Source: Candidatus Saccharimonadota bacterium
GTDB lineage: Bacteria; Patescibacteriota; Gracilibacteria; BD1-5; UBA6164
Direction of reading: 5' to 3'
Assembly (NCBI GenBank): GCA_965227835.1
Contig: OZ245768.1
Coordinates: forward strand, 1,410,001-1,442,000
DNA: 32,000 nucleotides
Shown here: piece by piece, positions 4,745 through 32,000 of the stretch
Numbering within the stretch: position 1 is the first letter of the stretch
Layout: each line of letters starts with the position of its first letter
Made by a program: the position numbers and the translations under genes
The notes under the pieces: model-generated
Told to the model about the DNA's origin: nothing
The model's database searches: none
Seen by the model: the letters and a program-made list of their open reading frames with translations, nothing else

Positions 4745-4818
4745 AATTAATATAGTTAAAAAATAAGTTTTATATGTTTGTGATCAAATTTATAATAATT
4801 TTTTATTTTTTGTCAAGT

Positions 4819-6087: not shown

Positions 6088-6680
6088 AATATAAAATTTA
6101 TAAAAATAAAATAAATGTATTTAGTTTTCGTACTAAATTTTTATACATAATGTTTTATATACACTTATTTGAAATTAATAAAATAACTTATTTTTAGTCT
6201 TTCTAGATAAACTTTTTCTTTGTTCTTTCTAGCAAGAAATTCAAACCCAGCACTTATTCATTTTAATTTTAGCAACAGTATTTCTTTTTAGAAGACAGAA
6301 GCATTATTATAGAATCTAACATATAGAATATTTTAATCATAACATCTATAGTTTAAATTTGGATAGAACAATAATGTAATAGGTACTTATATATGTGTAT
6401 ATAAAATTATATTTTTGGTATTTGTTTTAAGCTTTTAATACTTGTTTTTAAAATGAAAAGGATAATTATATAATCATAATAACTATATTTCATTTAAGTG
6501 TATTAAAAACACTTTAAAAGTGTAATGTTTTATTTTTTTATGTCAAACTTTTTTTCAAACTTTTTTATTTTTTATGAAAATAATCTATTTTACAAAACAT
6601 ATAGAAGTCAATTTTAAAATATAGAAATATAAGCTTAATTATGATATTATATAAAAGTTATTTTTATTTATTATTTTTAA

Positions 6681-8006
6681 ATGAGTTTATCTAATTTCAT
6701 AAAAAAAGATTCTGGTAAAACTTCTTCAAAAATGGAAGATTTATTTATTATTCCTAAGGTTTCTAAAAACAATAATATAGTTGATTCAGATTTACACTTA
6801 GATGTTTATGGTAGCTGAAAGGATGATAAAAAAATTATACTTATCTTAAATGATATATTTTTAAAAGCCCTTATTCTAAAGGCTTCAGACATACATTTTG
6901 AACCAAGAGAGAAAGACATCAATATAAGATTTAGGGTTGATTGAGCTTTTGTTAAATGAAAATCGTTTGATGTTTCTTTGAAAGATTCAATTGTTGCCAG
7001 AATCAAGATAATGTCTTCTCTAAGAATAGATGAACATAGGCTACCTCAAGATTGAAAAATTACATATAAACTTTTTGCTGGTAAATCTATTGATATGAGA
7101 GTTTCTGTTATTCCTACTATATATTGAGAAAAGATTGTTATAAGGCTTCTTAAAAAAGATGAAAAACCACCTAAGCTTAGAAGTTTGGGTATAATGCCTT
7201 ATAATATGGTTAAGATAAAAAAACATTTAAGTGATCCTTATGGAATGATTTTAGCTGTATGACCAACTTGATCTGGTAAATCAACTACCCTTTTTTCTCT
7301 TTTAAGCCAGTTTGATTCTAGTGAGAAAAATATATCAACTTTAGAAGATCCTGTAGAGTACAGAATTCCTTGAGTTAATCATACTCAAGTAAACCCTAGT
7401 ATAGATTTTAATTTTGCTAAATGACTTAGGAGTCTTTTAAGACAAGATCCAGATATAATTATGGTCTGAGAAATAAGAGATAATAATACGGCAAAGTTAG
7501 CAGTTGAAGCTTCTATTACATGACATATAGTTTTTTCTACCCTTCATACAAACTCTGCTAGTCACACTTTACAAAGGCTTATAAATCTAGGAATAGATCC
7601 TCTTCTTATAAGTTCAAGTTTGAGGATTATAATATCACAAAGATTGGCTAGAAAACTTTGTAGTAGTTGCAAAATTTCTTATTCTCCTGATCCTAAAATA
7701 AAGGATTATATAATTTGAAAAGTAGGAAAATACATAAAAGATAAAGATAATCTCAAATTGTATAAACCAAAACAGTGATGATGTAAAAATTGTAATAGTA
7801 TTTGATATTCTTCTAGAATTTGATTATATGAGGTTTTGGAGATGACTGATTCTATGGAGAATCTTATACTTAATAATGCTTCTAGGACCCAGCTTGAAAT
7901 TCAGGCTATAGGTGATTGAATGGTTACTATAAAAGAAGATGCTTTGCTTAAGGTTGTTATGTGAGAAACTAGTATAGAGGAAGTTTTGGCTGTTTTGGGG
8001 CATTAG
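6681..8006 (+). CDS. pilB: Type II/IV secretion / type IV pilus assembly ATPase (GspE/PilB family), 441 aa
   Basis: Walker A AVGPTGSGKSTT (glycines at 7260-7262 and 7269-7271 are TGA). Also present: Asp box LEDPVEY, Walker B DPDIIMVGEIRD, His box [12 protein letters not shown], and a tetracysteine motif CSSC..CKNC typical of PilB/GspE rather than PilT. TAG stop at 8004-8006. Confidence 0.9.
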
Positions 8007-8154
8007 GATAAAGCTAATTAAATATATTTTGAAAAATTAACATTTTTGGAAAATTCATTTAAAGAAAGTTAATTTTTTTCTAATTTTCACCAGAGATTTT
8101 TTTGTCTTAGAATAGATAAACAAAAAATCTTGTTCATAAAAATTATCTAAAAAA

Positions 8155-8332
8155 TCAAAAGACTAAAGACTCTTTTGGCAAAGATATGAGGTCAAAAGGC
8201 TAAAGCCTTCTGTTGAAAAATATAATATCAGAGGACTGAAGTTTATCTGTTGACAAAAATACAGTATCAAAAGGCTAAAGCCTCTTCTGCATAATATGTA
8301 AGGTCAAAAGGCTAAAGCCTTCTGTTGACAAG
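8155..8332 (+). repeat. Tandem array of five ~37-bp hairpin-forming repeats, consensus TCAAAAGGCTAAAGCCTTCTGTTGA(A/C)AA
   Basis: Copies start at 8155, 8192, 8228, 8267 and 8304 (spacings 37, 36, 39, 37). The core stem is AAGGC / GCCTT around a TAAA loop. The array sits in the convergent intergenic region between pilB-1 and yebC. Confidence 0.75.
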
Positions 8333-8414
8333 TAGTAAAAAATTATTTTTTAGTTAAAATTGTATTTTAAAACAGTTTAACTTACGAGTTAATTTACTAT
8401 AAAAGAAAATAGCT

Positions 8415-9185
8415 TTATGTTTTAAAGCTATTTTTTTCTATAAACTCATTTACTTCTTTTTGTAGTTCTTCTGAAATTATTTCATTTGTAGATACTCCTG
8501 CTACATCCTCATCTTCATTAAAAGCTTCTATCATTTTTGTGAATTTTAGAGCTTTTTCAAATTCATTAATTTCTACATAGTTTTCAGCCACAAAATCAAG
8601 TTTAGATTCCATTAGTTCAATATTTCTTTTTTCAAAGAATTCTTCTATTTTGTTGTGAGTCTCCACTCAAGTGATTATTTTTAAATAATCCTTATTTATT
8701 ATGAAGTCTAAAGATTCTGTTTCATATACTAGATTTTCTATTTCCTGATTATCATATTTTTTAGGATCTATAAAAATAACTCATCTTCTTTGAAATGACC
8801 AAGACACAGAACCACTTTCTCACATATTACCTCAAAATTTTGATAAAATATGTCTAATGTTTGAAACAGTTCTATTTTTATTATCCGTCAAGACTAGAAT
8901 CATAACAGATATTCATCAAGAAGCATATCATTCATAAATTACTTCTATTATTTGCTTGGAGCCTTTATCTTCTCAGGTTCATTTTTTTATCGCTTTTTCT
9001 ATATTGGAATTAGGAACCCCATCTTTTTTAGCTTTTTGTATAGCTAAGGCTAGATTTGGATTATCATCTGGATTTCATCCAGAACTTGACGCTAGCGATA
9101 TTAATTTAGCATGGATTGAGAAAACTTTACCTTTTATTTTGTTTACAGAGTCTCTTCTAGCTTGAACTACTGGTCATCTTCACAT
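8415..9185 (-). CDS. yebC: YebC/PmpR family DNA-binding transcriptional regulator, 256 aa
   Basis: Translation gives [85 protein letters not shown].., colinear with YebC/TACO1 family proteins. ATG at 9183-9185 and TAA at 8415-8417. Confidence 0.88.
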
Positions 9186-9402
9186 AGATTAAATAGTTAT
9201 GTATTTATTTAAATAATGAATTAAAAATTCATATATTTTAAAAAAATAATATTTTTTTATACAATTTTTGCAAAAATTAATGTCATATTAATATTGCATG
9301 TGTATAATTACAATTTTTTGTACATTGTTTTTGGCTTAAATTAAGGAAAAAAGTCGATTTTTCTTTTGACTTATAAAAATATTTTTTTAACATATTTTTT
9401 GA

Positions 9403-9458
9403 GCATTTAGTCAATTATTTTATGGGAGGTTAAAATAATTCACTAAATGCATTTTTTT
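9403..9458 (+). terminator. Long hairpin plus T-run (intrinsic-terminator-like) with no upstream plus-strand CDS
   Basis: 20-nt arms GCATTTAGTCAATTATTTTA (9403-9422) and TAAAATAATTCACTAAATGC (9431-9450) carry one mismatch around the loop TGGGAGGT. The hairpin is followed by ATTTTTTT (9451-9458). Confidence 0.4.
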
Positions 9459-9652
9459 ATGCATATTTTTGACAAATATTAGAAATCTAAAATTATAATA
9501 AAAAACTTATCTATATATTTTATCACTCTAAGGAGTCACTAAAAAATTACTTCATAATGTAAAAATAAAGATTTTTTAGTTAAATTTTTCAAATAAAGAG
9601 TCCTTGTGAACTATGTTATTACTTTTTCAACTTTAAAAAAATTAATGAAAAA

Positions 9653-9678
9653 AGTTACAATTCTGTAACTTTTTTTTT
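9653..9678 (+). terminator. Intrinsic-terminator-like hairpin upstream of the speH-like gene
   Basis: AGTTACA (9653-9659) and TGTAACT (9664-9670) form a perfect 7-bp stem with loop ATTC, followed by eight T (9671-9678). Confidence 0.5.
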
Positions 9679-9764
9679 GTATAAAAATACGGCTAGGAAG
9701 GTAATTTTTGGTTTTTTAAAACTGAAATTTATTTCTAGGTGATTTTATTTTTTAATTTTTTTTG

Positions 9765-10199
9765 ATGAAACTTTTAAGAAACATTAAAGATGAGTGACTT
9801 TCTTATGAAACTTCTTTTTTAGAAGAAAATCTTAGAAAGGGTAATTTTTGGGGTCTTGCAACTTCACTTGATATTTATTGATGTGATCCTGATATAATCA
9901 GAGATTCAGATTCTATTAGTAGATATGTCAAAGAACTGTGTGATCTTATAGAGATGAAGAGATTTTGAGATACTCAAATTGTTCATTTTGGTGAGGATGA
10001 GAAAGTAGAGTGATTTAGCATGATACAGCTTATAGAAACTTCTCTTATTAGTGGTCATTTTGCAAATAAAACTAATGCCTCTTACTTGGATATTTTTAGT
10101 TGTAAATATTACGATCCTCAAGTAATGGCAGATTTTAGCTTGAAGTTTTTCAAGTGAGATTACTACAAAATAAACGTATCCAGTAGGGATACAAAATAA
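9765..10199 (+). CDS. S-adenosylmethionine decarboxylase proenzyme-like protein (SpeD/SpeH small class), 144 aa
   Basis: Translation gives MKLLRNIKDEGLSYE..GLATSLDIYGCD..EGFSMIQLIETSLISGHFANK..YLDIFSCKYYD, resembling the small bacterial/archaeal AdoMetDC fold. The self-cleavage region reads ETS rather than the usual ES. TAA stop at 10197-10199. Confidence 0.55.
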
Positions 10200-15570: not shown

Positions 15571-15747
15571 CTTTAAGCTTATTATGATATAATTTATAAA
15601 AGTATATATACAAGTTGGATAAAAACAAAATATTTGTATGTGTAATAGATTGTCTAAAAGATTAAAAAAAGGCTAAAAATAGCTATTTTAAAGTCTCATA
15701 AAAGATCTTTTTAGATTAATTTAAAATATTATAATATATTAAATGAT

Positions 15748-17076
15748 ATGTCTACAAAAGATATTGCAAAAAAAGATGCACAGGATAAATTAAAGGAAGA
15801 TATATTAAAAACTGAAATAAAAAGTGAGATTTTTTCAGATAAATTTTCCAAAATAGAGAAACAAGTAAAAAAATCCTTAATTGAAAGAAAAACCGATCAA
15901 GCTTTATCTGATTTGACATTTTGAGCTCTTTATTTGGGTGTTTCAGATATTCATTATGAAGCTTATGAAAAACATGTGGTAGTTAGATTTAGAATAGATT
16001 GAGTTTTGGTTTCTATTTTTAATTTAAGCCACTGAGAATATAAATCTATACTTGAAAGGATTAAATATTCTGCTAATTTGAAATTGAATATTAGTAATGT
16101 ACCTCAGGATTGAAAATATGATTTAAAGGTAAAATTGAAGGACAAGGAAAATTTTAAAAAAATAGATGTCAGAGTCTCTACTTTGCCTACAAAATATTGA
16201 GAAAATATAGTTTCTAGACTGCTTGATAGTTCAAAAGCTATAGTTGATTTTGAAAGTTTGGGTTTTTATTGGATGAGTAGGAGAATGATAGATAAGGCTA
16301 TTTCAAAAAATAGTTGAATGATTCTAGTAACTTGACCTACAGGTTCATGAAAAACAACAACTCTTTATACAATATTAAATAAAATAAATAATTCTGATAA
16401 AAAGCTTATAACTCTTGAAGATCCAATAGAATATGAACTACCTTGAGTTATACAATCAGAAGTAAATGAAAAATCAGGTTTTACTTTTGATACAGGTTTG
16501 AGATGTCTTTTGAGACAAGATCCTGATGTAATAATGGTTTGAGAAATAAGAGGAAAAGAAACTCTTGATACAGCGACTCAAGCTAGTCTTACATGACACT
16601 TGGTATTATCAACACTTCATACCAAATCTGCTGCGGAGACTTTGGATAGGATAATAAATATGTGATTAAAACCTTATATAATAGCTTCAGCTCTTGATAC
16701 TATTATAGCCCAAAGGCTTGTAAGGAGGATATGCCCAGATTGTAAGATAGAGAGAGAAAAAAGTTCTTGAGATATAGCTATGATTAAGGCTATGATGCTT
16801 GATGTTTGAATGAAATGATTGCCTGTTGAGGCTATGAAACTTTATCGTTGAAAATGATGTGAAAAATGTAATAATAGTTGATATTCTTGAAGAGTTTGAT
16901 TATTTGAAATAATTAGGATAAACGAAGATTTAGCTGATCTTATAAGAAAAGAGGCTCCTAGTGAAGAGATAGTAAAAAAAGCTAGAAACTCTGATTTGGT
17001 ACTTATGAAAGAAGATTGAATATTAAAGGCAATAAAGGGTTATACTACTTTGGAAGAGGTTCTTAGGGTGGTTTAA
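15748..17076 (+). CDS. pilB: Type II/IV secretion / type IV pilus assembly ATPase (GspE/PilB family), second copy, 442 aa
   Basis: Walker A VTGPTGSGKTTT (TGA glycines at 16333-16335 and 16348-16350). Also present: [30 protein letters not shown], and the tetracysteine motif CPDC..CEKC. TAA stop at 17074-17076. Confidence 0.9.
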
Positions 17077-17364: not shown

Positions 17365-20300
17365 CTATTCTTCTATAATTTCAATTTTACTTTCTTTTAC
17401 TAACCCCCTTACTATATTCTCCTGTATATCTTTATCTTCAAGGTTACTAACCACAGCACGAGCTTTAGGTACAAGCACTTCTTCTATAACTTCACTAAAA
17501 CTTTTATCTCATAGTTGGTTATAACGCAAAAATATTTGTTCAGCATCACGATAAGATACCTCAAATTCAAACTTTTCTTGATAATTTTCAGATTTTTGTT
17601 TTTCTCTTAAATTTTGAAAAAGTTTTACAAGAAATCTAACATTTCCTAAAGTTCTTGTTAATTCATTATCTTTATCTTCTCCTCTAAAAAATGATTCTTC
17701 TCCATAAAATCTACTAAACTTATCAAAATCTATATTTTTAAAATAATCTATACCTGTGTATTTAGCAATCTTATATGCTTCATTCTTTTCCGATGGTGCA
17801 TTTATTTGAATTATACTTGATCTACTTACTATAGGATTTGAAAGAATTTCATAACTATTTCTTGTTCCAGCAAAAATACAATCTGAGTGAGCTTTAATTG
17901 TACCTATTTGAGGATCATATATAGACCTTCCAGAATCAAATAGTCTGTGAAGTCTTTCAAAACATTGAGGATCTAGTTTATCTATCTCATCAAATAATAT
18001 AATAACTCATGGTTTTTGCATAATTTTTATCCATTCAGCTTGTTGTCTACTTGTTTCTCATGCTTTAAGTTGTGGAGAAAAAAACAAATCACTAGGATCC
18101 ATTTTTGAACACTGTATTCTTACTACTTCTCTGTTTGTCATAGCTCCAAACTGTTCAATCATCATAGTTTTTCAAAGCCCTGGATCTCATTCGAGAATTT
18201 CTATTCACTTTTGCTCTTTTTTTTGAATAACAAAACCTGCACTAATTTTTCTAAATATTTCTCTTTCTTCATCAAGTACAATAAATCTTGGATCAGGAAG
18301 GCTGTAGTGAGATCTAGGATTTAAATCAAGCTTGTTTGCAAGAGCAGTAGCAAAATATTCAAGTATTCTTGGTGATTTAAATTTTTCTAAATGATTTTTA
18401 TATTTTTCTTTTAAGTTTTCGTATTCTTCTTTTTTTGAATTATCGTTTCTAATTTCAGACATCCTCTTTCTCATTTCTTCATATTGTTTCTTTCATCTAT
18501 CTAACCAAAAATTATAATCTCTTTGATGTCTTAAAAAATCTTCTTGCGAAAGATGTGTAGGTATATTTATGAAAATCATACCTAAAGCATACCTTCCTGG
18601 ATTTTGGAGATAGCTATCTATATCAAAAACGGTTCCATCATCATAATGAAGAGCTAGTTTAATATTCCCTTCGGGTGTTCTTGATCACTCAAGTTTAAAT
18701 CAGATAGATTTTTGTCATATATTTGAAAAATAAAGACTTACATCAATACCATATTCATCTATTGAGACAGACCTTGTTTTATTATGAAACTCATTTATTC
18801 TTATCTCTTGTTCTCTTTTTTTAAATGCATTATCTAAACTTATTGTCATTTCCTCACGATATTCTTTTGGAATAGTCTCAATATAGTTTTTAATTTTTAA
18901 AACAAGTGGATCTGAATTTTGTAGTTCTTTTAGACTTTCAATATTATCTATACTTGCTATTATCCTTTTTATATTGGAAATTCATGTATTAATTTCAGAG
19001 ATTTTTTCTTCTATTTGCCTTTGTTTTTCACTTTTTTCAGATTTTTTTACTTTTTCTATTCTAGCGATATGGGAAGCTATAATATCTTCTATATTTCTTG
19101 TTTGAGTTTTTCTCTCATCTTCATCAAGAATTTCTATAATTTTAATTGCTTCTATATATTCCTCTTTATTATAGACAGAAGTGATTTGTGGAAGGTAGTT
19201 AATTAGAGATAGATAATCTTGTATTTTTTCAAAATATTCTTCCAAAGATTTTTTTATATCATCTAAGTTTTTCGAACGGATCTCAGATATGTTTCTTTCT
19301 ATTTCTTTTTTGATGGAAGATATTTCATTATCTAGATTTGAGTCTGTGTTTGGTATCTGTCATCTAATTTTTTCTATTTCATCCAGCCTTTCTTTAAAAT
19401 TAATAAGATCTGTTAAGATATTTTCTGGATTTTCCTCTGATTCTAGATTTTTTAAATCGTCTCCAAGCTTTTTGGTATCTGATTTTAGTTTTTTAAGAAG
19501 CATAGAAAAATATTTTTTGTTTATTTCGGACTCAACTTCATTTATAGTTTCAGGAACATTAATCAAATCAGGATGTTTTTTTATCTGCAAAAATAGTTTT
19601 TTAACTTCTTCAATAGATTCTACATCATTTGCATCATCAAAAATTTCTTTAAAGGTTTTTTCTCATACAGAAGCATCCCATATTTTTTTTATTATGTCTT
19701 TCGCTAAATTCTGTTCATTTTTGTTTTCTAAGTTTATGCTTATTCAAATAATATCTAGTTTATCTTTTACCTCTTCAGCTGCAGTTTTTATTAATTTATT
19801 ATTATTTATATCTAGTGGATTTTTATCCACATATCCTCTTGGAATATTGTTAGTTGAAATACAAACTACCCTTAAATTTTCTTTATCATCTTTACAAAAT
19901 AGTTTGTTATGTTCATGGCTCATATAAACAATTTCTGTAATTCCATCATAGGCATCTTGTACCTCTTCTAATGTTTTCCTATTTAATATTCTTAATTTTG
20001 AGTAGTTTTGCTCTTCGGATATAATAAAATAAAAATTATTGTTCTCATCAGTGGATATTTGTTTAATTTTTCCATAAAATGATAAATTGTAAAATTCTTT
20101 TTCAGGCAAATAACTTTTTTCATTATTATCATAATTCAAATAAACTAAATTACTATCTTTAATACCAACAAGTCTTTTTCCACTTTTGTTTATGACACAA
20201 TATCAATCTGATTCAAAACCAATATTTTCATTATTAATAGATATTCTCAAGATACTCTTTCATTGATAAAATTTTGATTTCATTTTTATGTATTCCATCA

Positions 20301-20748
20301 TTTCTCTTTTTTTTCTTTTATCTTGTATCTTTAATGCTTTGACTCCTTTTGACAAATATTCATCGAATTTTCAGAGTAGAATATTCCCATCTTTTGTTGT
20401 AATTATTATATAATCTTCAACGGTTAAAATATCTAAAATCTCAAATAGGTTTACCTGTGAATTTAATTTACTTATATGTATTCATACAGAAGAATAGACT
20501 CGCATATCTTTTAAATTATTTATATATGTTTCAAATGATTCTGGTACCACAAAACTTTCAAGATTTTTAAATGAAGCTCTTTTAAATCATATATTAATAA
20601 AATCATCAAAATTCAATCAATCTACAACTGATAAATTTGAAAGAAATTCTAAAACATTGTTTTTATTATTGTTTGGAAGTAACTCAATGGAAAATTTTCC
20701 TTGTTCATATTGAGTGGGAAGAAGTTTTTTTTTGTTTATACTTGTCAT
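17365..20748 (-). CDS. Giant multidomain protein (paralog A, intact, 1127 aa): unknown N-terminal domain, long helical/coiled-coil region, C-terminal MoxR/AAA_5-like ATPase
   Basis: All 1128 codons were translated by hand. There are about 20 in-frame TGA and no TAA/TAG before the TAG at 17365-17367. Walker A EGDPGLGKTMM (the TGA glycine is at 18172-18174 on the plus strand), Walker B GVIILFDEIDKL, and sensor-like blocks CIFAGTRN and PIVSRSSII. The frame merges five track ORFs. Confidence 0.85.
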
Positions 20749-20772
20749 AATTTTTGTTTTTATTTCTATTTT

Positions 20773-20970
20773 TTATTTTTCATATCTACGAATAGTTTTT
20801 CGTAGGTTACTATTATATGATCATATCATTTTTTCAGTTAATTTTCAAATATCTGGCACTATAATAGTTCATCCACTTTCTTTGTTTCAAAAATACCATT
20901 GTAACCTTTCTTTATTTTGATTTGATGAGTTTATGTAGTAAGCTGTAACTCCATATCACCTATCCCTTAT
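20773..20970 (-). pseudogene. Dead remnant of the 3' end of the TGase-vWA gene (about 65 codons, no start codon)
   Basis: Translation IRDRGYGVTAYYINSSNQNKERLQWYFGNKESGGTIIVPDIGKLTEKMIGSYNSNLRKTIRRYEK* aligns colinearly with the last 65 aa of the 25644-28205 protein (IRNKGYGLTAYYIGGSNQDKTELEGYFGNEQKGGTIIVPDIGQLKQKLIGSYNTGLRNIIRKYTK*). The frame is closed by a TAA immediately upstream. The same 24-nt spacer separates the stop from the next ATG in both copies. Confidence 0.7.
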
Positions 20971-22245
20971 TTAACTATTTTTATAACTTACCTCTTATCT
21001 AGGTTCTTTTTTTAAGTATTTATCAACTTATATATTCTTTTACTAATTCTTTTACTATATTCTCCTGTATATCCTTATCTTCAAAATCTTGTACTACAGC
21101 TCTTGCTTTTGGAATTAGTACTTCTGAAACTACTTCTGAAAATGTTTGATTTCAGAGCTTATTATAACGCAAAAATATTTGTTCAGCATCACGATAAGAT
21201 ACCTCAAATTCAAATTTTTCTTGAAAATCTTCTGATTTCTGTTTTTGTCTCAATGCTTGAAAGAGTTTTACAAGTCCTGAAATATTTTTTAAAACCACTT
21301 CAAGCTTTTCACTTCAAGCTGATTTAATGCTACTAGATTTATTTCAGCTATATATATTTCTAAACTCATCATAATTTATATTATTAAAGTATTCTATACC
21401 TGTAAATTTTGATACTTTAAATGCTTCATTCTCTTCCGATGGTGCATTTATTTGCATAATACTTGATCTACTTACAATAGGATTTGAAAGGATTTCATAA
21501 CTATTTCTAGTAGCAGCAAAGAGACAATCTGAGTTAGCTTTAATCGTACCTATTTGAGGATCATAAATAGATCTCCCAGAATCAAAGAGTCTATGGAGCC
21601 TCTCAAAACATTGGGGATCTAGTTTATCTATTTCATCAAATAATATAATAACTCATGGTTTTTGCATAATTTTTATCCACTCAGCTGGTTGCCTACTTGT
21701 TTCTCATGCTTTGAGTTGTGGAGAAAAAAACAAATCACTTGGGTCCATTTTTGAACACTGTATTCTCACAACCTCTCTATTGGTAATAGCTCAAAATTGT
21801 TCCACCATCATAGTTTTTCATAAACCTGGATCTCATTCAAGAACCTCAATTCACTTCTGTGTTTCTTTTTGAATACTAAAACCAGCACTCATCTTTCTAA
21901 ATATTTCTCTTTCTTCATCAAGTACAATAAATCTTGGATCAGGAAGGCTGTAGTGAGATCTAGGATTTAAATCAAGCTTGTTTGCAAGAGCAGTAGCAAA
22001 ATATTCAAGTATTCTTGGTGATTTAAATTTTTCTAAATGATTTTTATATTTTTCTTTTAAGTTTTCGTATTCTTCTTTTTTTGAATTATCGTTTCTAATT
22101 TCAGACATCCTCTTTCTCATTTCTTCATATTGTTTTCTTCACTTAATTTTCCAGAAACTATAGGGACCTCTGCAAAAAGATAGATTTAAATTACAAAAAT
22201 ATAATAAAAAGATTAAAATATGATAAATATTTTAATTTTTTTTTA

Positions 22246-23217
22246 ATGATTATGTCACCATTTAAAGAACAACAAACATTTTTGAATTATTTCCAAAATG
22301 AGTTATGAATTACAAGAACAGAAAAGTTTCTAACAAAATTAGATAAAGTAGTCCCATGGGAATCAATATCAAATAAAATTAATTTATCTAGAGAAATATC
22401 AGATTGATGAGTTTGAAGACCAAGAATGGAAATACAAAAAATGTTAAAAATACTATTTCTTCAATGACTATATGGATTATCAGATCCGGAAATAGAAGAT
22501 CAAATAAGAGACAGAAATAGCTTTCAAAAGTTTCTATGAATATCTGAATCTAAAGATATACCAGATGAAACAACAATATGTAGATTTAGAAATGAATTAT
22601 CAGAAAACTGAAGTCAGGAAACTATATTTACAATGACTCAATTTATTTTAGCTGAAATGTGATTTACAGTAGAAAAGTGATTTATTCAAGATGGTACTAT
22701 AATAGAATCACCAAAATGAAGAAAGAATAATAAATGAGAAAATACAAGAGATAAGGAAGCTAGTTTTACAAAGAAGAATTGAAGAAGTTATCATTGATAT
22801 AAAGCTCATATTGAAACAACAAAGAGAGGAGACTTTGTAATGAATACAACATATACGACAGCTAAGATACATGATTCACAATTATCTGATACTTTAATTA
22901 CTTGAGATGAGAGTGAAGAGGCATATTGAGATAGTGCCTATATAAGTAAAGATAAAATAAAATTTTTAGATGAGTTATGAATTAAGTGAGAGTTCAATGA
23001 AAGATGATCTAGAAATAATCCGTTGACTTCTTATCAAAAAGAACAAAATAGAATTAAATCTACTATTAGGGCAAGAGTAGAACATCCTTTTTCTATTTTA
23101 AAGGCTAAATATTGAAATTATAAAACAAGATATAGATGATTAGTTAAGAATGCTATGCACTGGTTTTTATCTTGTGCTATTTATAATTTTGAACTATTGG
23201 CAAGGAGGTATATATAG
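22246..23217 (+). CDS. IS5-family DDE transposase, 323 aa, itself requiring TGA = Gly
   Basis: Translation gives MIMSPFKEQQTF..GGVGRPRMEIQKMLKILFLQGLYGLSDPEIEDQIRDRNSFQKFLG..DETTICRFRN..IQDGTII..YHGYKAHI..YGDSAYIS..RARVEHPFSILKAKYG.., the InsH/IS5-like N-terminal block and DDE blocks. There are many in-frame TGA at conserved glycines. TAG stop at 23215-23217. The start could instead be the ATG at 22252. Confidence 0.85.
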
Positions 23218-23305
23218 CTTTCTAATAGGTGAATTGTGCCTAAATTTGGAAATTATACCTAAAAAAAGGCATAATTCATAGAAATTATCTTATATATTCT
23301 TCAAA

Positions 23306-23336
23306 AAAAGTGATTTTTATTCAAAATCACTTTTTT
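23306..23336 (+). terminator. Intrinsic terminator inside the right end of the IS
   Basis: AAAAGTGATTTT (23306-23317) and AAAATCACTTTT (23323-23334) form a perfect 12-bp stem with loop TATTC, followed by a T-run. Confidence 0.6.
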
Positions 23337-25643
23337 CTTGTTCTTTTCAACAATATTGCAGAGGTCCCTATAATTTTTCTGATGTTCAATAAAATCTTTC
23401 TGTGAAAGTTCGGTAGGTATATCTGTAAAAACCATTGCTTCTGAATACTTTCCTGGATTTTGGAGATAGCTATCTATATCAAAAACAGTTCCATCATCAT
23501 AGTGAAGAGCAAGTCTAATATTCCCTTCCGGTGTTCTTTTTCACTCAAGTTTAAATCAAACAGATTTTTGTCATACATCTGCATAATATAGACTAGTATC
23601 AATACCATATTCATCAAGTGAAGCAGATACTCATTCACTGTAAAGTTGGCTTATACGTATTTCCTGATTTCTCTCTTTAAAAATATTTTCTAAGCTGATT
23701 TTCACTACATCACCTTCTGCTTTTGGGAGAGTTTTTATATTATCTCTGATTTTCAAGACAAGTGGATCAGAACTCTCTATAGAACTCAAAACCGTACTAT
23801 CGTTTATGCTGGCAATTACTCTCTGAATAGATGCTATTTCTGTATGAATTTCTGTGATTTTTTCTTCTATTTCTTTTTGCCTCTTTTGATTTCAAGATTT
23901 ACGTACCTGTTCAACCACACTCATACGTGCCTGAATCATATCATCAAGACGTTTTAACTGAGTTTTTTTCTCGTCTAAATCAAAAAAATCTATTATTTTT
24001 AGGGTCTCTTTATAAATATCAGTATCATACACCGATGTAATTTGTGGTAGGTAGTTAATTGCAGAAAAATATGATTGAATTTTTACAAAATAGTCTTCCA
24101 AAGAAGCCAAAACTCATGCAGAGTTTGCACTACGAATATCAGAAATATTGGATGATATTTCTCCAGAAATAGTAGATATTTCTGTATCCAACTTCACATC
24201 CACATCAGGTATTTGCGATCTATTTTTTTCTATCTCAGTAAGTTTTGTTTGTAAATGAATTAGTTTTGTAAATTTTATTCTTTCATCTTGTTCTCAGCTT
24301 ATATCTTGTAAATCATTTCTCAGTTTTTGAATATCTGATTTTACTTTTTGTAAGAGTATAGAAAAACACTTTTTTTCTATTTTTGATTTTATACCGTCCG
24401 TGATACCAGGTACAGACATAACTAAGGGATGTTGTTGTATTTGCACAAAAAGTTTTTGTACCATATCAATATCTTCTATATCTTGAGCTTCTTCAAAAAC
24501 TTGTCTAAAGCTAGACTCTCAAACTGGGATATTCCAAATTTCTTCTATAATTTCAGCATGTAATGTTTCTCAAGGATGAGTATTTTCGTCCATATCCGGT
24601 GTAAGTTTGAGTCATCATTGTTCTAGAACTTCTATAAGTTTTTGAGCTGTAGTATCTTGTACTCTAATAATATTTGTTGAGTTATCTTGAATGGTCAGTG
24701 TATGATTATCCACATATCCTCTTGGGAGGCTATTTGTTAAGATAGTTATAATTCTCAAATATCCATCTTTGTCTTTACAAAATAATTTTCCCTCTTTATG
24801 GCTCATATAAATAATTTCTTCAATATCATCATATGCTTCTTGTACTTCTTGTAGTGTGGCTCTGTTAATTATCCTGAGCTTTGAAATTCCTTCATTTTGT
24901 GTAATAATGAAATAGAAATTATTATTTATATCTGTAGAAATATGCGTAATATTTCCATATTCAGATAAATCATAAATTTCCTTTTCAGGAGTACAAGAAT
25001 CTTTATCATAGCTATAGTAACGAAGTTTGTTATTTTTTAATACAGCAATTTTATTATCATCAGCTATGCAGTATCAATAAGCAGAAACAGAATGAAACTT
25101 ATTTTCTACTTTTATTTTTAATAATCATCAATCATAAGTAATAGCTTCTTTTTTCAGCATATCTGCTTTAACCTTATTTAACTCATCTTCATTTGTTATT
25201 TTTAAGGCTTCTAATCAGTTACTGAGATACTTATCAAAATCTCCATAAAATAGATTTTCTCCATCGTCTCTAATGATTATACTAGAACCTAATTTTGATA
25301 CATATTTTACCTTAAATAAAGGTATTCATATATTTCTTAAATCATTGATTTTTTGAAAAGATCAAGAATCAAGGGAAAATCATTGATTTTTCAAATTATA
25401 AATGAATGTTGATAACTTTTCAGGTATGTATAAATAATCATCAAGAGAATTACCAGTTTCAAATCATAATTCTATAAGTTTATTCTTACTCAATCATTGA
25501 ACAATTGATAAATCAGATAAAAACTTCATTTTATCATCTCTATCAACTATAGGAAGCATATCAATAGAAAAACTTCCTCATGATTTATTAGATTCTTTAT
25601 CTCAATCTATTTCTGACATAGCTACTTTTTTAAAATATAAAGT

Positions 25644-28205
25644 TTATTTTGTGTATTTACGAATAATATTTCGTAAACCTGTATTATATGATCATATCAG
25701 TTTTTGTTTTAATTGTCATATATCCGGCACTATAATGGTTCATCCTTTTTGCTCATTTCAAAAATATCACTCTAACTCTGTTTTATCTTGGTTAGATCAT
25801 CCAATATAATAGGCTGTGAGACCATATCATTTATTGCGTATTTCATTTATAAGAGACTTGAGTCATTCTCATTTAAGCCCTGAAATAGGTGTTCCATCTC
25901 CTATGAAGGAAATATTTCAAAATGATTGTTTTTTTGTCTTTTTTTTATAATCTTCTAGTTTTCATAGTGTATATGCTAGAGGTTGTCCTATGTCTGTTCC
26001 TCAGCTATTTTGTAGAGCTCTCATAAGACGAGATGGTACAGTGTTGAGCCTTTTATCTGTAAATACTTCTCCAAAAGCCATGACCTCTTCTATATTATCG
26101 TCAAAGAAAAGAATATTAAATTCTACTTTAAAATGTTCAAGTACTTTTGCTCTTATAATTGCAGCCTTTACTGATTCTCTTATGGGAGAATTCAGATCAT
26201 GAAAATTCCCCATACTTCCACTCCTATCTATTATGATACTCTCAAACATATTGATTTCATTTGATTCACGAACCTGTTTATCTCTCCTAAATACATTAGG
26301 GTCTCAAGTCAAAGTATGTTCAATCAATTTTCCTGTACTACCGATGCGAGGACCACTACGATGATAATTTTGTTTGTCTTGGATTGTATGATATTTTTTT
26401 GGAAGTATTCTTTCAAGAGCTTTTATTTGTGATCTTAACTCTGGTTCAATCTCTTTTTCAAGATCCTGATAGGTTTGAAAAAGATGAAGTTCATTATCTT
26501 TAAATCCCATTCTTTCCATTTTAGATTTTTGACGTTTTTTCTCTTCTTCTATTTTTTTTCTTACTACATCAGCATATTCAGAGAGCTTCTTTTTATAATC
26601 TTCATTTAGTAGAGAGTTTTTTTCTAACATCTCTATTTCTGATTCATCTGTTGCATTTTCTATTTCTTTTTTTTCTTGATCTAATATTTTACTATTTCAA
26701 ATATCCTGAATCATATCTTTTGCAAAATCTGAAAGTTTGGTATTATCAAGTATATTTTTAATATCTTCTTTTGACTCGGATTGCTCAAGTTTTTCTATGG
26801 TATCTTTGAGTTCTTCAGCTTGTTTTGATAGTGAGTCTTCTCTTGCTTGTTCTATAAGTTCTTCTAGTGCCTCTATTGGAGACTTTGATGGAGCTTCTGA
26901 TTCTTGTCATTGTGAGTCATTTCATTCTTGAGAACTAGATTCTCATTCTTGTCATTTTGCTTCTTGTAAAGGTTCAGATAATTCTCCCTTATCTCACTCA
27001 CTATTTCAAGAATCACTTGATTCACCTGGTTCCAGGGACTCATTCTCTTTAGAAGAATTATCTCATTGTTCAGAGACACTTTCAGAGTTATTGTTGTCTT
27101 GAGAGTTTCAAGTATTATCACTTTCTTCTTTCACTTGAGGAGTTGCATCTATATGAATCCACTTCTGAGTATCTTCATCCCAAAATTCATTCCAAGCATG
27201 ACCATTATTAGAACCAAGCAGACTTTTTCATCCATCTGTTTCTTGTGACATATGTCCTGTTACTACTCTACAAGGAATTCAAAGCTGTCTACAAAGACCT
27301 GCAAAAAGAGATGCTGCAGAAAAACAATCTAGTACCGGTGAAGCATCTAAGTTTGTAATATAGTTTCTCTTATTAGATTTTTTATGAAGAGATCATTGCT
27401 TTGTTGTTGAATATTTCTTTGTACTTATGATATGCTTTTTGATTTGTGTTGCAGTATCTTTTGATGATACTGGTTTCAAAGAGTTTAAGAGATTTTGAGT
27501 TTCTGATGAAAGTTTATCAAATATTATTTTTTCACTATCTTCTTTTATTGGGTCAAGTGGTGTAATATTTTGGTTTTGATAAAATATAAAACTTACATAT
27601 TGTTTTTCCTGACATTGTATATATATACAGTTATTCTGATCTTTTTTAAATAAAGGAGGATATTTTCCATTGTATACAATGCTACTTATATCAGGTATAG
27701 AACCATTTGGAAGGGGAATAGTAACAAGTCCAGCAGGCATAACTCAAGCATATGTGTATTTTCTTTGTGTTTTATCAATACTATCATTTATGTCTCAGAG
27801 TTGCTTTTTTTTTGCCCAAAGATTTGTATTTGAATCGAAATAAGAATTTCTTCCAGAGACATAGTATCACTTATAGTGTGGATGTATTTCTGCAAACCTG
27901 GGAGAAGCTCACATTGACTCTCAAAATTCTGAGTCTTTTGGAATATACTCATCTTCATCTTGAAAATGCTGTTCTTGTTTTGGAGTATTTGAATCTTGAT
28001 TTCACGAATTTTTTGGTGTATGAGAATCATCTTTCATAGATGCTTCTTTATTCTCATCTTGAGGAATAACTTCTTCAACTCTATTTTTTGTCTCTTTTTC
28101 AATTCTTTCTTTCTTTTTTCTTATAAGACTTAAAATAAACTCTTTAACATTTGAAAGAGATTCTTTGAATTTATTTGAAGAATTTATATTGTTTTTGCTA
28201 TTCAT
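25644..28205 (-). CDS. Fusion protein: transglutaminase-like cysteine protease core, acidic low-complexity linker, coiled coil, and C-terminal von Willebrand factor A (MIDAS) domain, 853 aa
   Basis: The frame was verified continuous from the ATG at 28203-28205 to the TAA at 25644-25646, merging four track ORFs. Transglutaminase triad context: LDCFSAASLFAGLCRQLGIPCRVVTGH .. NGHAWNEFWDEDTQKWIHIDAT. vWA MIDAS motifs: IIIDRSGSM .. SGGTDIG .. FIGDGTP. The N-terminus is hydrophilic and I see no signal peptide. Confidence 0.85.
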
Positions 28206-28398
28206 GTATGTATCATAGCATATTTTTTATAAATTCTCAAAATATTGATATTATAAATATTTTTTATTTCTTTTATACTATAGTAAACTAGGTTACAAAT
28301 TGTTTTACTGTGTATATAGATAAATAACAAGAAAAATTAAAAGAATCCTTAGTTTTAAACAATGGAATTTTTCACAAAAGAAGAATACTCCAACAAGA

Positions 28399-28464
28399 GC
28401 AAATGGCTAAAGCCATCTGTTGAAGAAGATATAAGAACAAAGATCTAAAGCTCTTTGTTGAAAG
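28399..28464 (+). repeat. Two tandem copies (38-bp spacing) of the same hairpin repeat family
   Basis: GCAAATGGCTAAAGCCATCTGTTGAAG (from 28399) and CAAAGATCTAAAGCTCTTTGTTGAAAG (from 28438). They share the loop TAAA, the stem architecture and the TGTTGA tail with the arrays at 8155 and 17205. Confidence 0.65.
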
Positions 28465-28501: not shown

Positions 28502-29794
28502 CTAATCTCTTATAAGTATTTGATCATTCAATTGCTTTAGCCTTTCTCATATGGCTTTTCATTTTAAATTAGGATATTTTTCCAAAATATCATTTCAAGT
28601 AAAAAATTTTTTTGTGGGGAGAATTTCTTTAAATTCTTTGTATATGTATACGATTTCTTCAAATCATTCTGTTTTTTGAGGTATCCTTCATTTGGTATCA
28701 GCTTCTCAAACTAATAAAAGATCTTCAAAATCTCTATCCATCATCAATTTTCTAGCTTTTAGTTTTCTCATATTTGCAATTTTAAATACTCGCAAGTGTT
28801 CTTTTATAATAAAATAAATAGTTCTACCAAAGTTGTTTGAAAATCTAAGCCTTTCTACCAAATCATTTTTAAACATTTCTGCTCATATTGTTTCATGTTT
28901 ATAATAATGTGTTTCTCAATCTTCTCATATGCTAAAAGTTGGAGCTTTTCATATATCATGAAGTAATATTGCCCATATGAGCATCAATTTTCTCTGTCAG
29001 TTTATTTTTTCTCTTTTTACTATTCCGTTCATTTCTAAAACACACATTTTGGTATGAGTCCATACATCTCATTCTAAATGATGTTTATTCCCAGGAAACT
29101 TATCAAGGCAATCAAGTTCGGGGATTATAGTTTCTATAAATCAAATCTTTTTTAAATCTTCCAAAGCTTCCACATTGTTTCAATCCAAAAGAATTTTATC
29201 AAGTTCTTGTCTAATTCTTTCAATTGGTATATTTTTTAATATTTTTATATGTTTTTTTATTATTTTCCAGTATCCCTCATCTGCGACTTTGAAGTTGTAT
29301 TTGTTTTTAAATCTAATAAATCTAAGTATTCTTAGGGCATCTTCTTTTATTCTATCTTCTATATTTCATACAAAACGAATAACTCAAGCTTTAATATCAT
29401 TTATACCTCATGTGGGATCAATAAACTCTCTAAGTTCAGGGTTATAATAAATAGCATTACAAGTAAAATCTCTTCTTAGGGCATCTTGTTCAAGAGAATC
29501 TGTAAATTCCACTTCGGCAGGTTTTCTATGATTTACACTTCCTATGTCTTTTCTAAAAGTTGTTATTTCAAATGATTCATCTCATTCAAGTACTATACAG
29601 GTACCATATTTCTTACCAACTTCTCAAGTAACTTCTAAAACTTTTTTAACTTCATCAGGTGTGGAGTTGGTAACTATATCTATATCTCAGCTATTTTCAT
29701 TTCATAAAATCTTTTCACGACAAAATCCTCCAACTATGTAGAATTCTTTGTCTATTTTTTTAAGTTTGTTTTGTATTGATAGTATGTTTTTCAT
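28502..29794 (-). CDS. cca: CCA-adding enzyme (tRNA nucleotidyltransferase with HD domain), 430 aa
   Basis: Translation gives ..FYIVGGFCREKILG..SGDIDIVT..YGTCIV..TTFRKD..DALRRDFTCNAIYY..GGINDI..IRFVGN..EDALRILRFIRF.. followed by an HD region ..LLHDIGK... The frame was checked line by line for TAA/TAG. TAG stop at 28502-28504. Confidence 0.85.
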
Positions 29795-29878
29795 TTTAGA
29801 GGGGTTTTGTAAGAGGATTAATTCAGATTAATTTTTAATAGTTAATTATATATTTGATATAAAAATTTATGTATTATT

Positions 29879-32000
29879 TTATTTTTTTGGTATTTTTTTA
29901 CAAAACTTTCAATTTGTATCAATAAATCACCATTCTTTACCTTTTTTAACTATAGCAAAACCTTCATTAAAATCTCATACATAATCATAAACTAATTCTC
30001 AAATTTCATTTCAATCTGTATCAATAAATCACCGTTTTTCAGCTTTTTCAACTCTGGCAAAACCTTCATTAAAATCTCATACATCATCATAAACTAATTC
30101 TCAAATTTCTTTTCAATTTGTATCAATAAATCACCGTTTATCACCTTTTTCAACTTGAGCAAAACCTTCGTTAAAATGTCATACATCATCATAAACTAAT
30201 TCTCAAATTTCATTTCAATCTGTATCAATAAATCACTGTTTTTTACCTTTTTTAACTGGAGCAAAACCTCCGTTAAATTCATATACATAATCATAAAAAT
30301 TTGGAAATTCTTTTCAATTTGTATCAATAAATCACCATTTTTTACCTTTTTTAACTTGAGCAAAACCTTCTCTAAATTCATATACATAATCATAAAAATT
30401 TGGAAATTCTTTTCAATCTGTATCAATAAATCACCGTTTTTCATCTTTTTTAACTTGAGCAAAACCTTCATTAAAATCTCATACATAATCATAAACTAAT
30501 TCTCAAATTTTATTTCAATCTATATCAATAAATCACCGTTTTTCATCTTTTTTAACTCTAGCAAAACCTTCTTTAAAATCGTCTATATAATCATAAAAAT
30601 TTGAAATTAATTTTCATTCTTTATTAATGATTCAGTAAATATCATCCTTTTTCCCAATTGCAACTCCATCTTTATATTGTCATGTTCTATCCCAAAAATA
30701 TTCTGATTCAATTCAATCTCAATCTCTATCAACAAACCAATATCCTCAATCCCTTTCTATACATACAAATTTTTCTCCTTCCTTAAACTTTTTTAATACT
30801 TCATCTCCAAACATATTTCTAATATCTTTATCATTTCCAAGTTTCTTTAAATCAGCTTCTATTTCCATTCCAACAGCTTCAAATTTTTCCAAGAAATATC
30901 ATCATAAATCATTTACAAAATCTATAAAAGGTTCTTCAAATCCTGAGGCCCAACCTAACTTTGCTAAAGAATCTATATCCTCTTTAGGGATTTCAAAATC
31001 TTTTTTTCACTCCATATCCTCCAACAATCTATTAGCAATAACCCCTATCTCATACCGATTTTCATTTCAATCATTTTTAACTGAAGACTTTGCTAAATAT
31101 TGTAAGAATTCTTCTTGCTTTTTAGTATTATCTGAAAAATCTATCTCATCTAGCTTTCTAATTTCATAAGGATCTAGGTTTGCCAAATCATAGGGATCAA
31201 TAAATTTTGTTCCAGAATCTTTAAAAATATCATTATCAGACATAATATTTCTATCCAAATCAGTTCTATCAACATCAATCATCCTATCTTCAAGCAATCA
31301 AATATCAGATTTTATAATTAATCAATTTTGAGAAAAAATTTTAATCAAAAGTAATCTATCAATAGTAGGATAGGCAGGGTTTGATAAGAAATCAGCAATT
31401 TTTATTTTTATAAACTTTTTAAAATCAAATTGAGACCCCCTAAATCCATTAAACAAAGAAACAAATTTTCAAATTTCAAGGATAGCTTTTTGCAAATGAA
31501 CTCAAGATTTATCAGATAATCCCAAAGAAATTTTCAGTTCAGATCATTTTCATAAATAACTATCTTCTATCTCTTTCAAAGCTTTAACAAGATTATAAAG
31601 AATTCAATCTTTTCACAGTTCTTCTTTACTTAATCAATATATATAACCTTGGGATTCCATCATATGAATTAGAGCCAAATCATAGGCTTCATTATTATTT
31701 AAATAAGATACTTGTATTCAACTAAATAATCTAAGTATAGCAGGATCTATTTCCTCTCTATCAGGGTGTTTTTCTGATTTAATATTTGCAGTAGCAATTA
31801 TTCAAGTAGAATGTAGGGTAATTCTACTATTAGAATCTTCTTGAGGGGCATATTGGCTTCACGATTTTAGAGTAAAAAGATGCTTTACCCTCATAATAAC
31901 ATCATTAGGAATCAAATCTATTTCATCAATAATAGGAACTTTTCATTCAACAAAAGCCTTTAACAATTTTCAAAGTTCAGTAGTGGTTTCTATTTCTCAT
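29879..32000 (-). CDS. AAA_5-like ATPase with C-terminal WG (KWG-type) beta repeats; the N-terminus lies beyond the window end
   Basis: The minus frame has no TAA/TAG from 32000 down to the TAA at 29879-29881 (checked line by line). At the window edge it reads ..KVPIIDEIDLIPNDVIMRVKHLF..GIIATANI..EIDPAILRLFSG..NNNEAYDLAL, colinear with the Walker B to lid region of paralog A. The C-terminal 250 aa are repeats such as GFAQVKKDEKRGFIDTDGNEIGELVYDYVGDFNE and KEWGFIDTNGK. Confidence 0.75.
29885..30640 (-). repeat. Seven in-frame tandem 99/102-bp repeats encoding WG repeats
   Basis: The motif TATCAATAAATCAC recurs at 29917, 30019, 30121, 30223, 30322, 30421 and 30523 (spacings 102, 102, 102, 99, 99, 102). 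Neighbouring units are highly similar at the nucleotide level. Confidence 0.8.

Follow-up and report, generated by a model that had tools for sequence, protein, structure and literature searches.

Operons of the MoxR-vWA(DUF58)-transglutaminase (TGL) type are predicted to encode an ATP-dependent, membrane-proximal degradation system in which the vWA protein recruits, MoxR unfolds and the TGL enzyme cleaves (Zhang & Aravind 2012, PMC3495828). TgpA, whose structure has been solved (6g49), is the transglutaminase of the classical MoxR-DUF58-TgpA operon. In the NorQ:NorD complex, which has a 6:1 stoichiometry, a finger of the C-terminal vWA domain enters the pore and its MIDAS site binds the client, while the linker that leads to the N-terminal domain is twisted and stretched as ATP is hydrolysed (PMC13036017, PMC9976466). 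Conflict systems, too, are known to be built on MoxR-vWA cores (Kaur et al. 2020, PMC7159879). All three domain types occur together in a 32,000-nucleotide stretch of a Candidatus Saccharimonadota genome (GCA_965227835.1, contig OZ245768.1, positions 1,410,001 to 1,442,000; hereafter the window, whose own coordinates are used below). Its gene A encodes a TGL-vWA fusion protein and gene B, present here as two paralogues (B1 and B2), a very large AAA_5 ATPase. With moderate confidence, the A-B pair is interpreted as a lineage-specific, re-partitioned MoxR AAA+/vWA/TGL (TgpA/YebA-type) remodelling and processing machine. The pair rearranges a functional trio that is already known and does not amount to a new principle. 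Its architecture is undescribed as far as PADLOC (0 families for A and 0 for B2), NCBIfam (no model for A or B), Pfam and the searchable literature go.

Gene A (25644..28205, minus strand) encodes a soluble fusion protein of 853 amino acids, delimited from Pfam matches, a 22-member family alignment and an AlphaFold2 (AF2) model. Its domain order is N-terminal helix, conserved acidic motif, beta-sandwich, TGL core, acidic linker, helical region and vWA/MIDAS domain. The TGL core (residues 250-354; 27144..27458, minus strand) matches Pfam Transglut_core (E 7e-15), and its catalytic residues C294, H336 and D353 are invariant across 22 homologue clusters sharing 40-65% identity. The adjoining linker (residues 361-443; 26877..27125, minus strand) is acidic, rich in Ser, Gly, Asn and Gln, and predicted to be disordered from its composition, a pLDDT of ~25 and gappy columns in the family alignment; its length differs among homologues. 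A helical region (residues 443-600; 26406..26879, minus strand), modelled as helices at pLDDT 70-85, leads to the vWA/MIDAS domain (residues 652-853; 25647..26252, minus strand). The latter is recognized by Pfam VWA (residues 657-833, E 1e-5) and VWA_2, by Foldseek and by the motifs DxSxS (660-664), GGT (735-737) and D770; D660-x-S662-x-S664 and D770 are invariant across the same 22 clusters. Hydropathy reveals no transmembrane segment in A (maximum 19-residue Kyte-Doolittle value 1.23) and no membrane segment in B.

The AF2 model of A was built on a database translation with Trp in place of Gly, using the 22-member homologue alignment, and has a mean pLDDT of 61.9, with domain cores at 70-90. 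It places the beta-sandwich and TGL core at residues ~135-360 and the vWA fold at 652-853. Residues 603-651 are conserved among homologues and are modelled at low confidence.

Gene A has two further features of note. Residues 83-136 (about 27798-27959) form a highly conserved acidic motif, DEDEYIPxDSEFGE...RFAEI.P...Y...SYF...NLW.KK.QL, left unstructured by AF2 (pLDDT about 25-45). One speculation is that this motif serves as a docking peptide; another is that it acts within the chain as a ligand of the MIDAS or as a pseudo-substrate. In addition, an in-frame TAG interrupts the linker of A (8851-8853 in L001, the same in L029) in one lineage recovered in two independent lake assemblies (loci L001 and L029, on contigs of about 0.5 and 1.1 Mb), where the TGL half (~500 amino acids) and the helical-vWA half (~320-380 amino acids) form separate open reading frames (ORFs). 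The two domains lie in separate ORFs only in these two loci, which may represent a natural split variant, a pseudogene or further recoding.

The ATPase is best seen in B2, the intact paralogue (17365..20748, minus strand), a code-25 ORF of 1127 amino acids with Pfam support. Its AAA_5 (MoxR-class) module (residues 834-999; 17752..18249, minus strand) was assigned from Pfam, profile matches to PDB sequences and motifs, and is located at about the same residues in B1. Pfam AAA_5 covers residues 851-956 (E 5e-15; 56.1 bits against a cut-off of 22) and was found in 12/12 B homologues. The module contains Walker A (GDPGLGKT), Walker B (DE), a sensor-1 Asn and an Arg finger, followed downstream by a sensor-2 Arg at 1067; K860, D920/E921, N964, R976 and R1067 are invariant among homologues. 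By these motifs, B appears to be a catalytically competent ATPase of the CbbQ/NorQ/midasin group.

AAA modules of B homologues form two clean clades, alpha and beta. Throughout clade beta (L001, L002, L005, L006, L010-L012, L016, L018 and L020) Walker A reads GTGKN rather than GxGK[ST]. Walker B, sensor 1 and the arginines are invariant in this clade too. The unusual P-loop may change how nucleotide or Mg is handled.

Solved structures place these domains in a common context. A profile of B searched against PDB sequences matched midasin AAA modules (5e-35, summed), CbbQ (8e-16) and NorQ (5e-8), over residues 834-999 only. For the TGL region of A, the single significant solved sequence relative is Pseudomonas aeruginosa TgpA (6g49, E 9e-6); the whole-A profile gave no match among PDB sequences at E < 0.01. 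In Foldseek searches with the model of A, the MIDAS domain of Rea1/MDN1 and the vWA domain of NorD (from NorQD complexes) rank first, and integrin I domains follow at similar TM-scores. Since the closest solved relatives are midasin, CbbQ and NorQ for the ATPase, the Rea1 MIDAS domain and NorD for the vWA domain and TgpA for the TGL domain, each of the three domains points to the MoxR/vWA/TGL association.

B proteins are 1100-1200 amino acids long, with ~830 residues ahead of the AAA module in which Pfam recognizes no domain. In B2 this extension begins with a beta-rich N-terminal domain (residues 100-310; 19819..20451, minus strand), delimited from the search of representatives described below, the identity matrix and a low-confidence AF2 model. 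A long helical region follows (residues 311-650; 18799..19818, minus strand), defined by conserved columns; the helical label is mostly a matter of sequence appearance, residues 343-391 being the only part that AF2 modelled as helices, at low confidence. The connector (residues 651-750; 18499..18798, minus strand) has conserved Y666, L672, Y673 and G705, and its description as beta-rich comes from the initial annotation, with no secondary-structure prediction behind it.

A HMMER search with the N-terminal 400 residues of B against 1.84 billion representatives found 35 proteins only. Because all 35 are B-like proteins of 1100-1300 amino acids or short fragments, and no other architecture appeared, the N-terminal domain is, on present sequence databases, exclusive to the B family. 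A further homology search, using a profile of 12 B sequences, gave no clusters beyond the same 6 and was probably swamped by low-complexity words. AF2 modelled residues 1-396 at a pLDDT of 45.6 (6-sequence alignment). Self-alignment with hhalign found no internal repeat in the N-terminal domain (E 0.22), and a beta-propeller fold is not claimed, as the propeller-like Foldseek matches were weak (TM < 0.35, root-mean-square deviation > 10 A).

At L010/L025 (SR1, dolphin oral metagenome) gene B (4805-8407) encodes 1200 amino acids, and the extra length is a tandem duplication of a connector segment, GKFKLSFQSS..GNEIEPSINK..FKFTYTFKERQELKQSLS.WKKSGKQQYNKLK. Here, too, the vWA domain of A is of the alpha type, but the AAA module of B is of the beta type.

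All gene models depend on the genetic code. With table 11 the ORFs of the window are only short and fragmentary; with TAA and TAG as the only stops, 33 long ORFs tile it at ~26% G+C. When A and B homologues from ~15 loci are aligned, the in-frame TGA codons stand mainly opposite Gly (background 3%), and Trp is essentially absent opposite them (background 0.4%). This alignment with Gly supports UGA = Gly, code 25, in the source genome, as the initial annotation had assumed. Many in-frame TGA codons were present in A at 16/16 loci checked. Public translations of A and B genes are either fragmented or, as in P0001 and P0007, read TGA as Trp. Standard annotation pipelines shatter or mistranslate these genes, with Trp for Gly at 2-4% of positions.

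Scans with the A profile and look-ups gave 14 loci from species-representative genomes, 23 loci from metagenomes and 7 from protein look-ups, with some duplicates. The genome loci are titled SR1/Absconditabacterales, Gracilibacteria, 'Peribacteria'-labelled metagenome-assembled genomes and UBA5532. In 18/18 genome and 22/22 metagenome loci that extend past A, the next gene, on the same strand, is a B of ~1100-1200 codons. The gap between them is 24-40 nt (15 loci measured). A second B occurs in none of the other loci, and clustering of all flanking ORFs from 20 loci revealed no third conserved gene. By these comparisons, what is conserved is a pair of genes in the order A, B. Flanking genes differ between loci and are often housekeeping genes (YchF, Obg, LepA, tRNA synthetases, IF-2, trigger factor). 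No relative was found on viral contigs (IMG/VR), plasmids (PLSDB) or phages (GenBank). Because adjacency is invariant, the flanks are unrelated and no copy was found on phage, plasmid or viral contigs, the module looks like a vertically inherited chromosomal function of code-25 bacteria and not a mobile defence island. Judging from the loci collected, it is so far found only in UGA-recoded Gracilibacteria/SR1 bacteria. Co-segregation of vWA type with AAA clade is not supported, as only 12/14 loci are concordant (L010 and L019 are not).

The window differs from other loci in having two B genes. B1 starts 24 nt past the stop codon of A. It consists of a 5' part (codons 1-749, encoding the N-terminal domain, helical region and connector; 23373..25619, minus strand) and a 3' part (AAA_5 module and C-terminal lid; 21020..22162, minus strand), severed by an insertion sequence (IS) of the IS5 family. 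The IS is 1206 bp long (22163..23368, plus strand; DDE_Tnp_1 E 5e-24, DUF772 E 7e-21), with 13-nt inverted repeats (GGGACCTCTGCAA) and a transposase ORF at 22246..23217. Its junctions, compared with B2, show 4-bp TATA target duplications at 22159-22162 and 23369-23372. When the IS is deleted in silico, B1 becomes a single frame of 1129 codons.

Amino acid identity between B1 and B2 is 33-45% over residues 1-650, 66% over 651-750, 98% over 751-830 and 90% in the AAA module. A perfectly identical tract of 242 nt (18248..18489 in B2, 21894-22135 in B1) ends ~25 nt from the IS site, and 60/60 codons are identical over B2 residues 767-826. Synonymous divergence (dS) is ~1.3 in the 5' two-thirds and falls to 0.5-0.7 in the 3' third, which supports homogenization of the 3' thirds by gene conversion. 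The nearest relative found, GCA_041156785.1, has an A that is 60% identical and a single B, which is nearer B1 than B2 throughout residues 1-750 (for example, 52% versus 41%). Therefore B1 is, on sequence comparison, the ancestral A-adjacent copy, destroyed by the IS, and B2 the divergent intact paralogue. The second B is thus apparently a duplicate peculiar to the lineage of the source genome, where B2 is left as the sole intact ATPase of the module.

The two ends of B have evolved differently. Groups of N-terminal domains in the identity matrix cut across the AAA clades: B in the window has a group-I N-terminal domain on a clade-alpha AAA module, and L012 and L020 are 90% identical in the AAA module and 27% identical in the N-terminal domain. 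For the one unsaturated pair, dN/dS along B is 0.32 in the N-terminal domain, 0.11 in the helical region, 0.06 in the connector and 0.03 in the AAA module. This pattern fits a conserved engine carrying an exchangeable or fast-evolving recognition module, with the N-terminal domain on average still under purifying selection.

The initial annotation had proposed a fast-evolving, accessory three-gene system with tandem giant ATPases and a role in defence or host interaction. Its TGL, vWA and AAA_5 assignments are borne out, and so is its MoxR/vWA/transglutaminase logic. Synteny in related genomes (40/40 loci), variability of the N-terminal domain of the giant protein and the lack of a catalogued counterpart likewise agree with what it had expected. 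The tandem ATPases are real paralogues here but are peculiar to the source genome, one B being present elsewhere, so the three-gene system reduces to an A-B pair. Fast evolution describes this particular locus, with its local duplication, gene conversion and IS; it does not describe a single-copy pair found amid unrelated flanks in ~40 loci. Nor does the label of accessory DNA suit a pair whose A is 40-60% identical across SR1 and Gracilibacteria and which was found on none of the phages, plasmids and viral contigs searched. A defence or host-interaction role finds no support in the distribution and depends on the variable N-terminal domain of B together with the duplication and IS of the source genome. 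The defence or accessory framing survives as a minority reading only.

If the pair works as NorQ-NorD, CbbQ-CbbO and midasin do, B would hexamerize through its C-terminal AAA module and the C-terminal vWA domain of A would dock on the B ring. A client would be captured by the MIDAS site, by the family-specific N-terminal domain of B, or by both. ATP hydrolysis would then pull on the linker of A or on the client, and the tethered TGL domain would cleave or transamidate it. Everything in this scheme beyond the domain assignments is inferred by analogy.

Several points weigh against interpreting A-B as such a remodelling and processing machine. Binding of A to B is proposed by analogy, and the TGL domain may be either a peptidase or a transamidase. 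One deep AAA clade has the non-canonical Walker A GTGKN. The 750-residue extension of B (fold model pLDDT 45.6) is without counterpart in any characterized MoxR system. vWA type and AAA clade are discordant in L010 and L019 among 14 loci. Finally, the scans rested on two peptide patterns, so the loci found give no prevalence within the lineage.

Alternatively, the pair may be a conflict system that serves defence against phages or competitors, or interaction with host or prey; the variable N-terminal domain of B would sense an invader or host protein, and the AAA/vWA engine would then unleash the TGL effector. This N-terminal domain is the fastest-evolving part of the protein (dN/dS 0.32 versus 0.03 for AAA, in the one unsaturated pair), it does not track the AAA clade (L012/L020; group-I on clade-alpha in the window), and the two paralogues of the source genome differ mainly in their N-terminal 650 residues. 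Episymbiotic lifestyles favour conflict systems. MoxR-vWA cores are, moreover, established scaffolds of such systems (PMC7159879). However, dN/dS of this domain is still below 1, A is strongly conserved, and it was the ancestral copy that the IS struck, which resembles decay rather than gain in an arms race. PADLOC gave no match, no third component is conserved, the vWA domain is not followed by an effector as it is in ternary systems (PMC7159879), and the pair is single-copy amid unrelated, often housekeeping flanks in ~40 loci and was found on no phage, plasmid or viral contig. A conflict role is therefore possible but unlikely. A more elaborate proposal, which we consider doubtful, is that A-B is a new modular sensing and processing machine of UGA-recoded episymbiotic bacteria: a midasin-like split engine (AAA_5 ring, D/E-rich tether and MIDAS) whose swappable B N-terminal domain would recognize host, prey or invader proteins, which the tethered TGL-fold enzyme would covalently modify or cleave. 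If this were true, paralogue expansion as in the source genome would broaden the target range.

Housekeeping flanks and single-copy conservation would also suit a split, prokaryotic midasin-like assembly factor that works on some large housekeeping complex (the ribosome or a pilus/secretion apparatus, for example), with the TGL domain as an accessory; here the AAA_5 ring, D/E-rich tether and MIDAS would strip or install factors. Midasin comes first among solved structures for both AAA (by sequence) and MIDAS (by fold), and the tail of midasin has a similar order of D/E-rich linker, helices and C-terminal MIDAS. The matches to CbbQ/NorQ and NorD are comparable, though, so the midasin matches reflect the general MoxR/vWA clade rather than a specific link, and integrin I domains reach similar TM-scores. 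With one AAA per B chain and not six, no linked gene for a UBL-type client, and a strictly conserved TGL triad that implies central catalysis, this explanation is improbable. It is more improbable still that A and B are mere neighbours without functional coupling, or that the locus in the source genome is a decaying remnant. Disruption of B1 by the IS, the split of A by an in-frame TAG in the linker in L001 and L029, and discordant vWA and AAA types in 2/14 loci are what such an explanation can draw on. Adjacency in 40/40 loci at 24-40 nt spacing, retained across deep divergence while flanks change, speaks against it; so do an intact A and B2 in the source genome, the conservation of all catalytic residues, and AAA_5-vWA pairing as a recurrent functional rule.

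A remodelling and processing machine built from A and B would be of interest beyond this locus. Gracilibacteria/Absconditabacteria have very small genomes, yet ~6 kb is kept for the pair, and a machine that is driven by ATP, carries a catalytic thiol enzyme and is both conserved and restricted to the lineage makes a good candidate for some function at the heart of their unusual biology. The pair is also a natural experiment on the MoxR-vWA-TGL trio. As adaptor and enzyme are fused and soluble, the recruit-unfold-cleave prediction is easier to test in vitro with A-B than with membrane-bound TgpA/YebA systems. With its 750-residue extension, B also contributes a set of domains that is uncharacterized and exclusive to the family.

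Directly upstream of A lies a gene for a CCA-adding/poly(A) polymerase-family enzyme with an HD domain (28502-29827, minus strand; PolyA_pol E 3e-34). By consensus match only, a promoter-like site with 10/12 matches and a TG-extended -10 lies just upstream of A (28212..28240, minus strand), and a terminator-like hairpin, the sole one in the region, follows the CCA-enzyme gene (28400-28419). Promoter-like sites are no commoner than in shuffled sequence, so operon structure is unsupported by the promoter and terminator scans. Further upstream, an ORF running off the end of the window (29879-31999, minus strand) encodes part of a large protein with seven WG_beta_rep repeats at its C-terminus (Pfam E 1.5e-51), and its visible N-terminal part resembles the Walker-B half of a P-loop/AAA-type ATPase (IIDEIDL...). 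It is not accepted as a third B paralogue, as BLASTP against B2 was not significant.

Two PilB/GspE-like genes lie on the other side, at 15715-17076 (plus strand; T2SSE E 3e-116) and 6681-8006 (plus strand), with a histidine kinase and response regulator pair between them; the second gene and this pair were judged from sequence only. A link to type IV pili or secretion is not supported, as synteny of the PilB-like genes with A-B does not extend to other loci. Elsewhere, further genes of the MoxR-partner type adjoin the pair in single loci: L006 has a DUF58 protein (7070-7750) downstream of the pair on the opposite strand, and L044, the nearest relative, a 675-amino-acid VWA_2+PLDc_N protein (7851-9878) immediately upstream of A. 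Neither is conserved at other loci.

Compared with described systems, the vWA-MoxR ternary conflict systems (with VMAP, iSTAND, FtsH and beta-propeller domains; PMC7159879) share with A-B a MoxR and vWA core and a variable appended domain. A thiol-peptidase-type effector is possible in A-B, and a propeller-like N-terminal domain in B is a very faint further likeness. Unlike A-B, these systems have a third component, none being conserved with A-B in 20 loci, and their effector lies C-terminal to the vWA domain (PMC7159879), whereas that of A is N-terminal. The extra domains of A-B sit on the ATPase, and the pair has no match in PADLOC. Ternary systems are hosted by multicellular bacteria and A-B by reduced-genome, UGA-recoded ones. 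Among solved structures, midasin (Rea1/MDN1) best matches the AAA module of B as well as the MIDAS domain of A, and it too has a D/E-rich segment before a C-terminal MIDAS, as well as long helical segments. However, midasin is eukaryotic, has six AAA modules in one chain and is without TGL, whereas a B chain contains a single AAA module and it is A, a separate protein, that carries the MIDAS 'tail'. The resemblance holds at clade level, rather than as a demonstrated specific relationship.

NorQ-NorD and CbbQ-CbbO are closer, as the AAA module of B matches CbbQ and NorQ and the vWA domain of A matches that of NorD. The topology of A is also that of a NorD-type partner (N-terminal domain, disordered linker and C-terminal vWA domain with MIDAS). 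The candidate in A for a pore-inserting finger like that of NorD is residues 603-651, which are conserved but lie in a low-confidence part of the model. In contrast to these systems, A-B has no linked genes for a client enzyme (nor or cbb), a catalytic TGL takes the place of the partner's N-terminal domain, and the ATPase is four times larger. More generally, a typical MoxR-class ATPase is compact (~270-500 amino acids) with one AAA module, which B, at 1100-1200 amino acids, is not; it nevertheless passes the AAA_5 threshold, has intact ATPase motifs and lies next to a gene for a vWA protein in 40/40 loci.

The MoxR-vWA(DUF58)-TgpA/YebA operon differs from A-B in having three genes rather than two with TGL and vWA fused in A. 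Its TGL protein is a polytopic membrane protein, whereas A is without a transmembrane segment by hydropathy, and the vWA domain of A was scored by Pfam as VWA/VWA_2 and not as DUF58. The A-B ATPase in addition bears an 830-residue N-terminal extension unique to its family. In both, however, the same three domain types are linked, the AAA module is of the AAA_5/MoxR class, and A has a TgpA-related TGL domain with an intact Cys-His-Asp triad.

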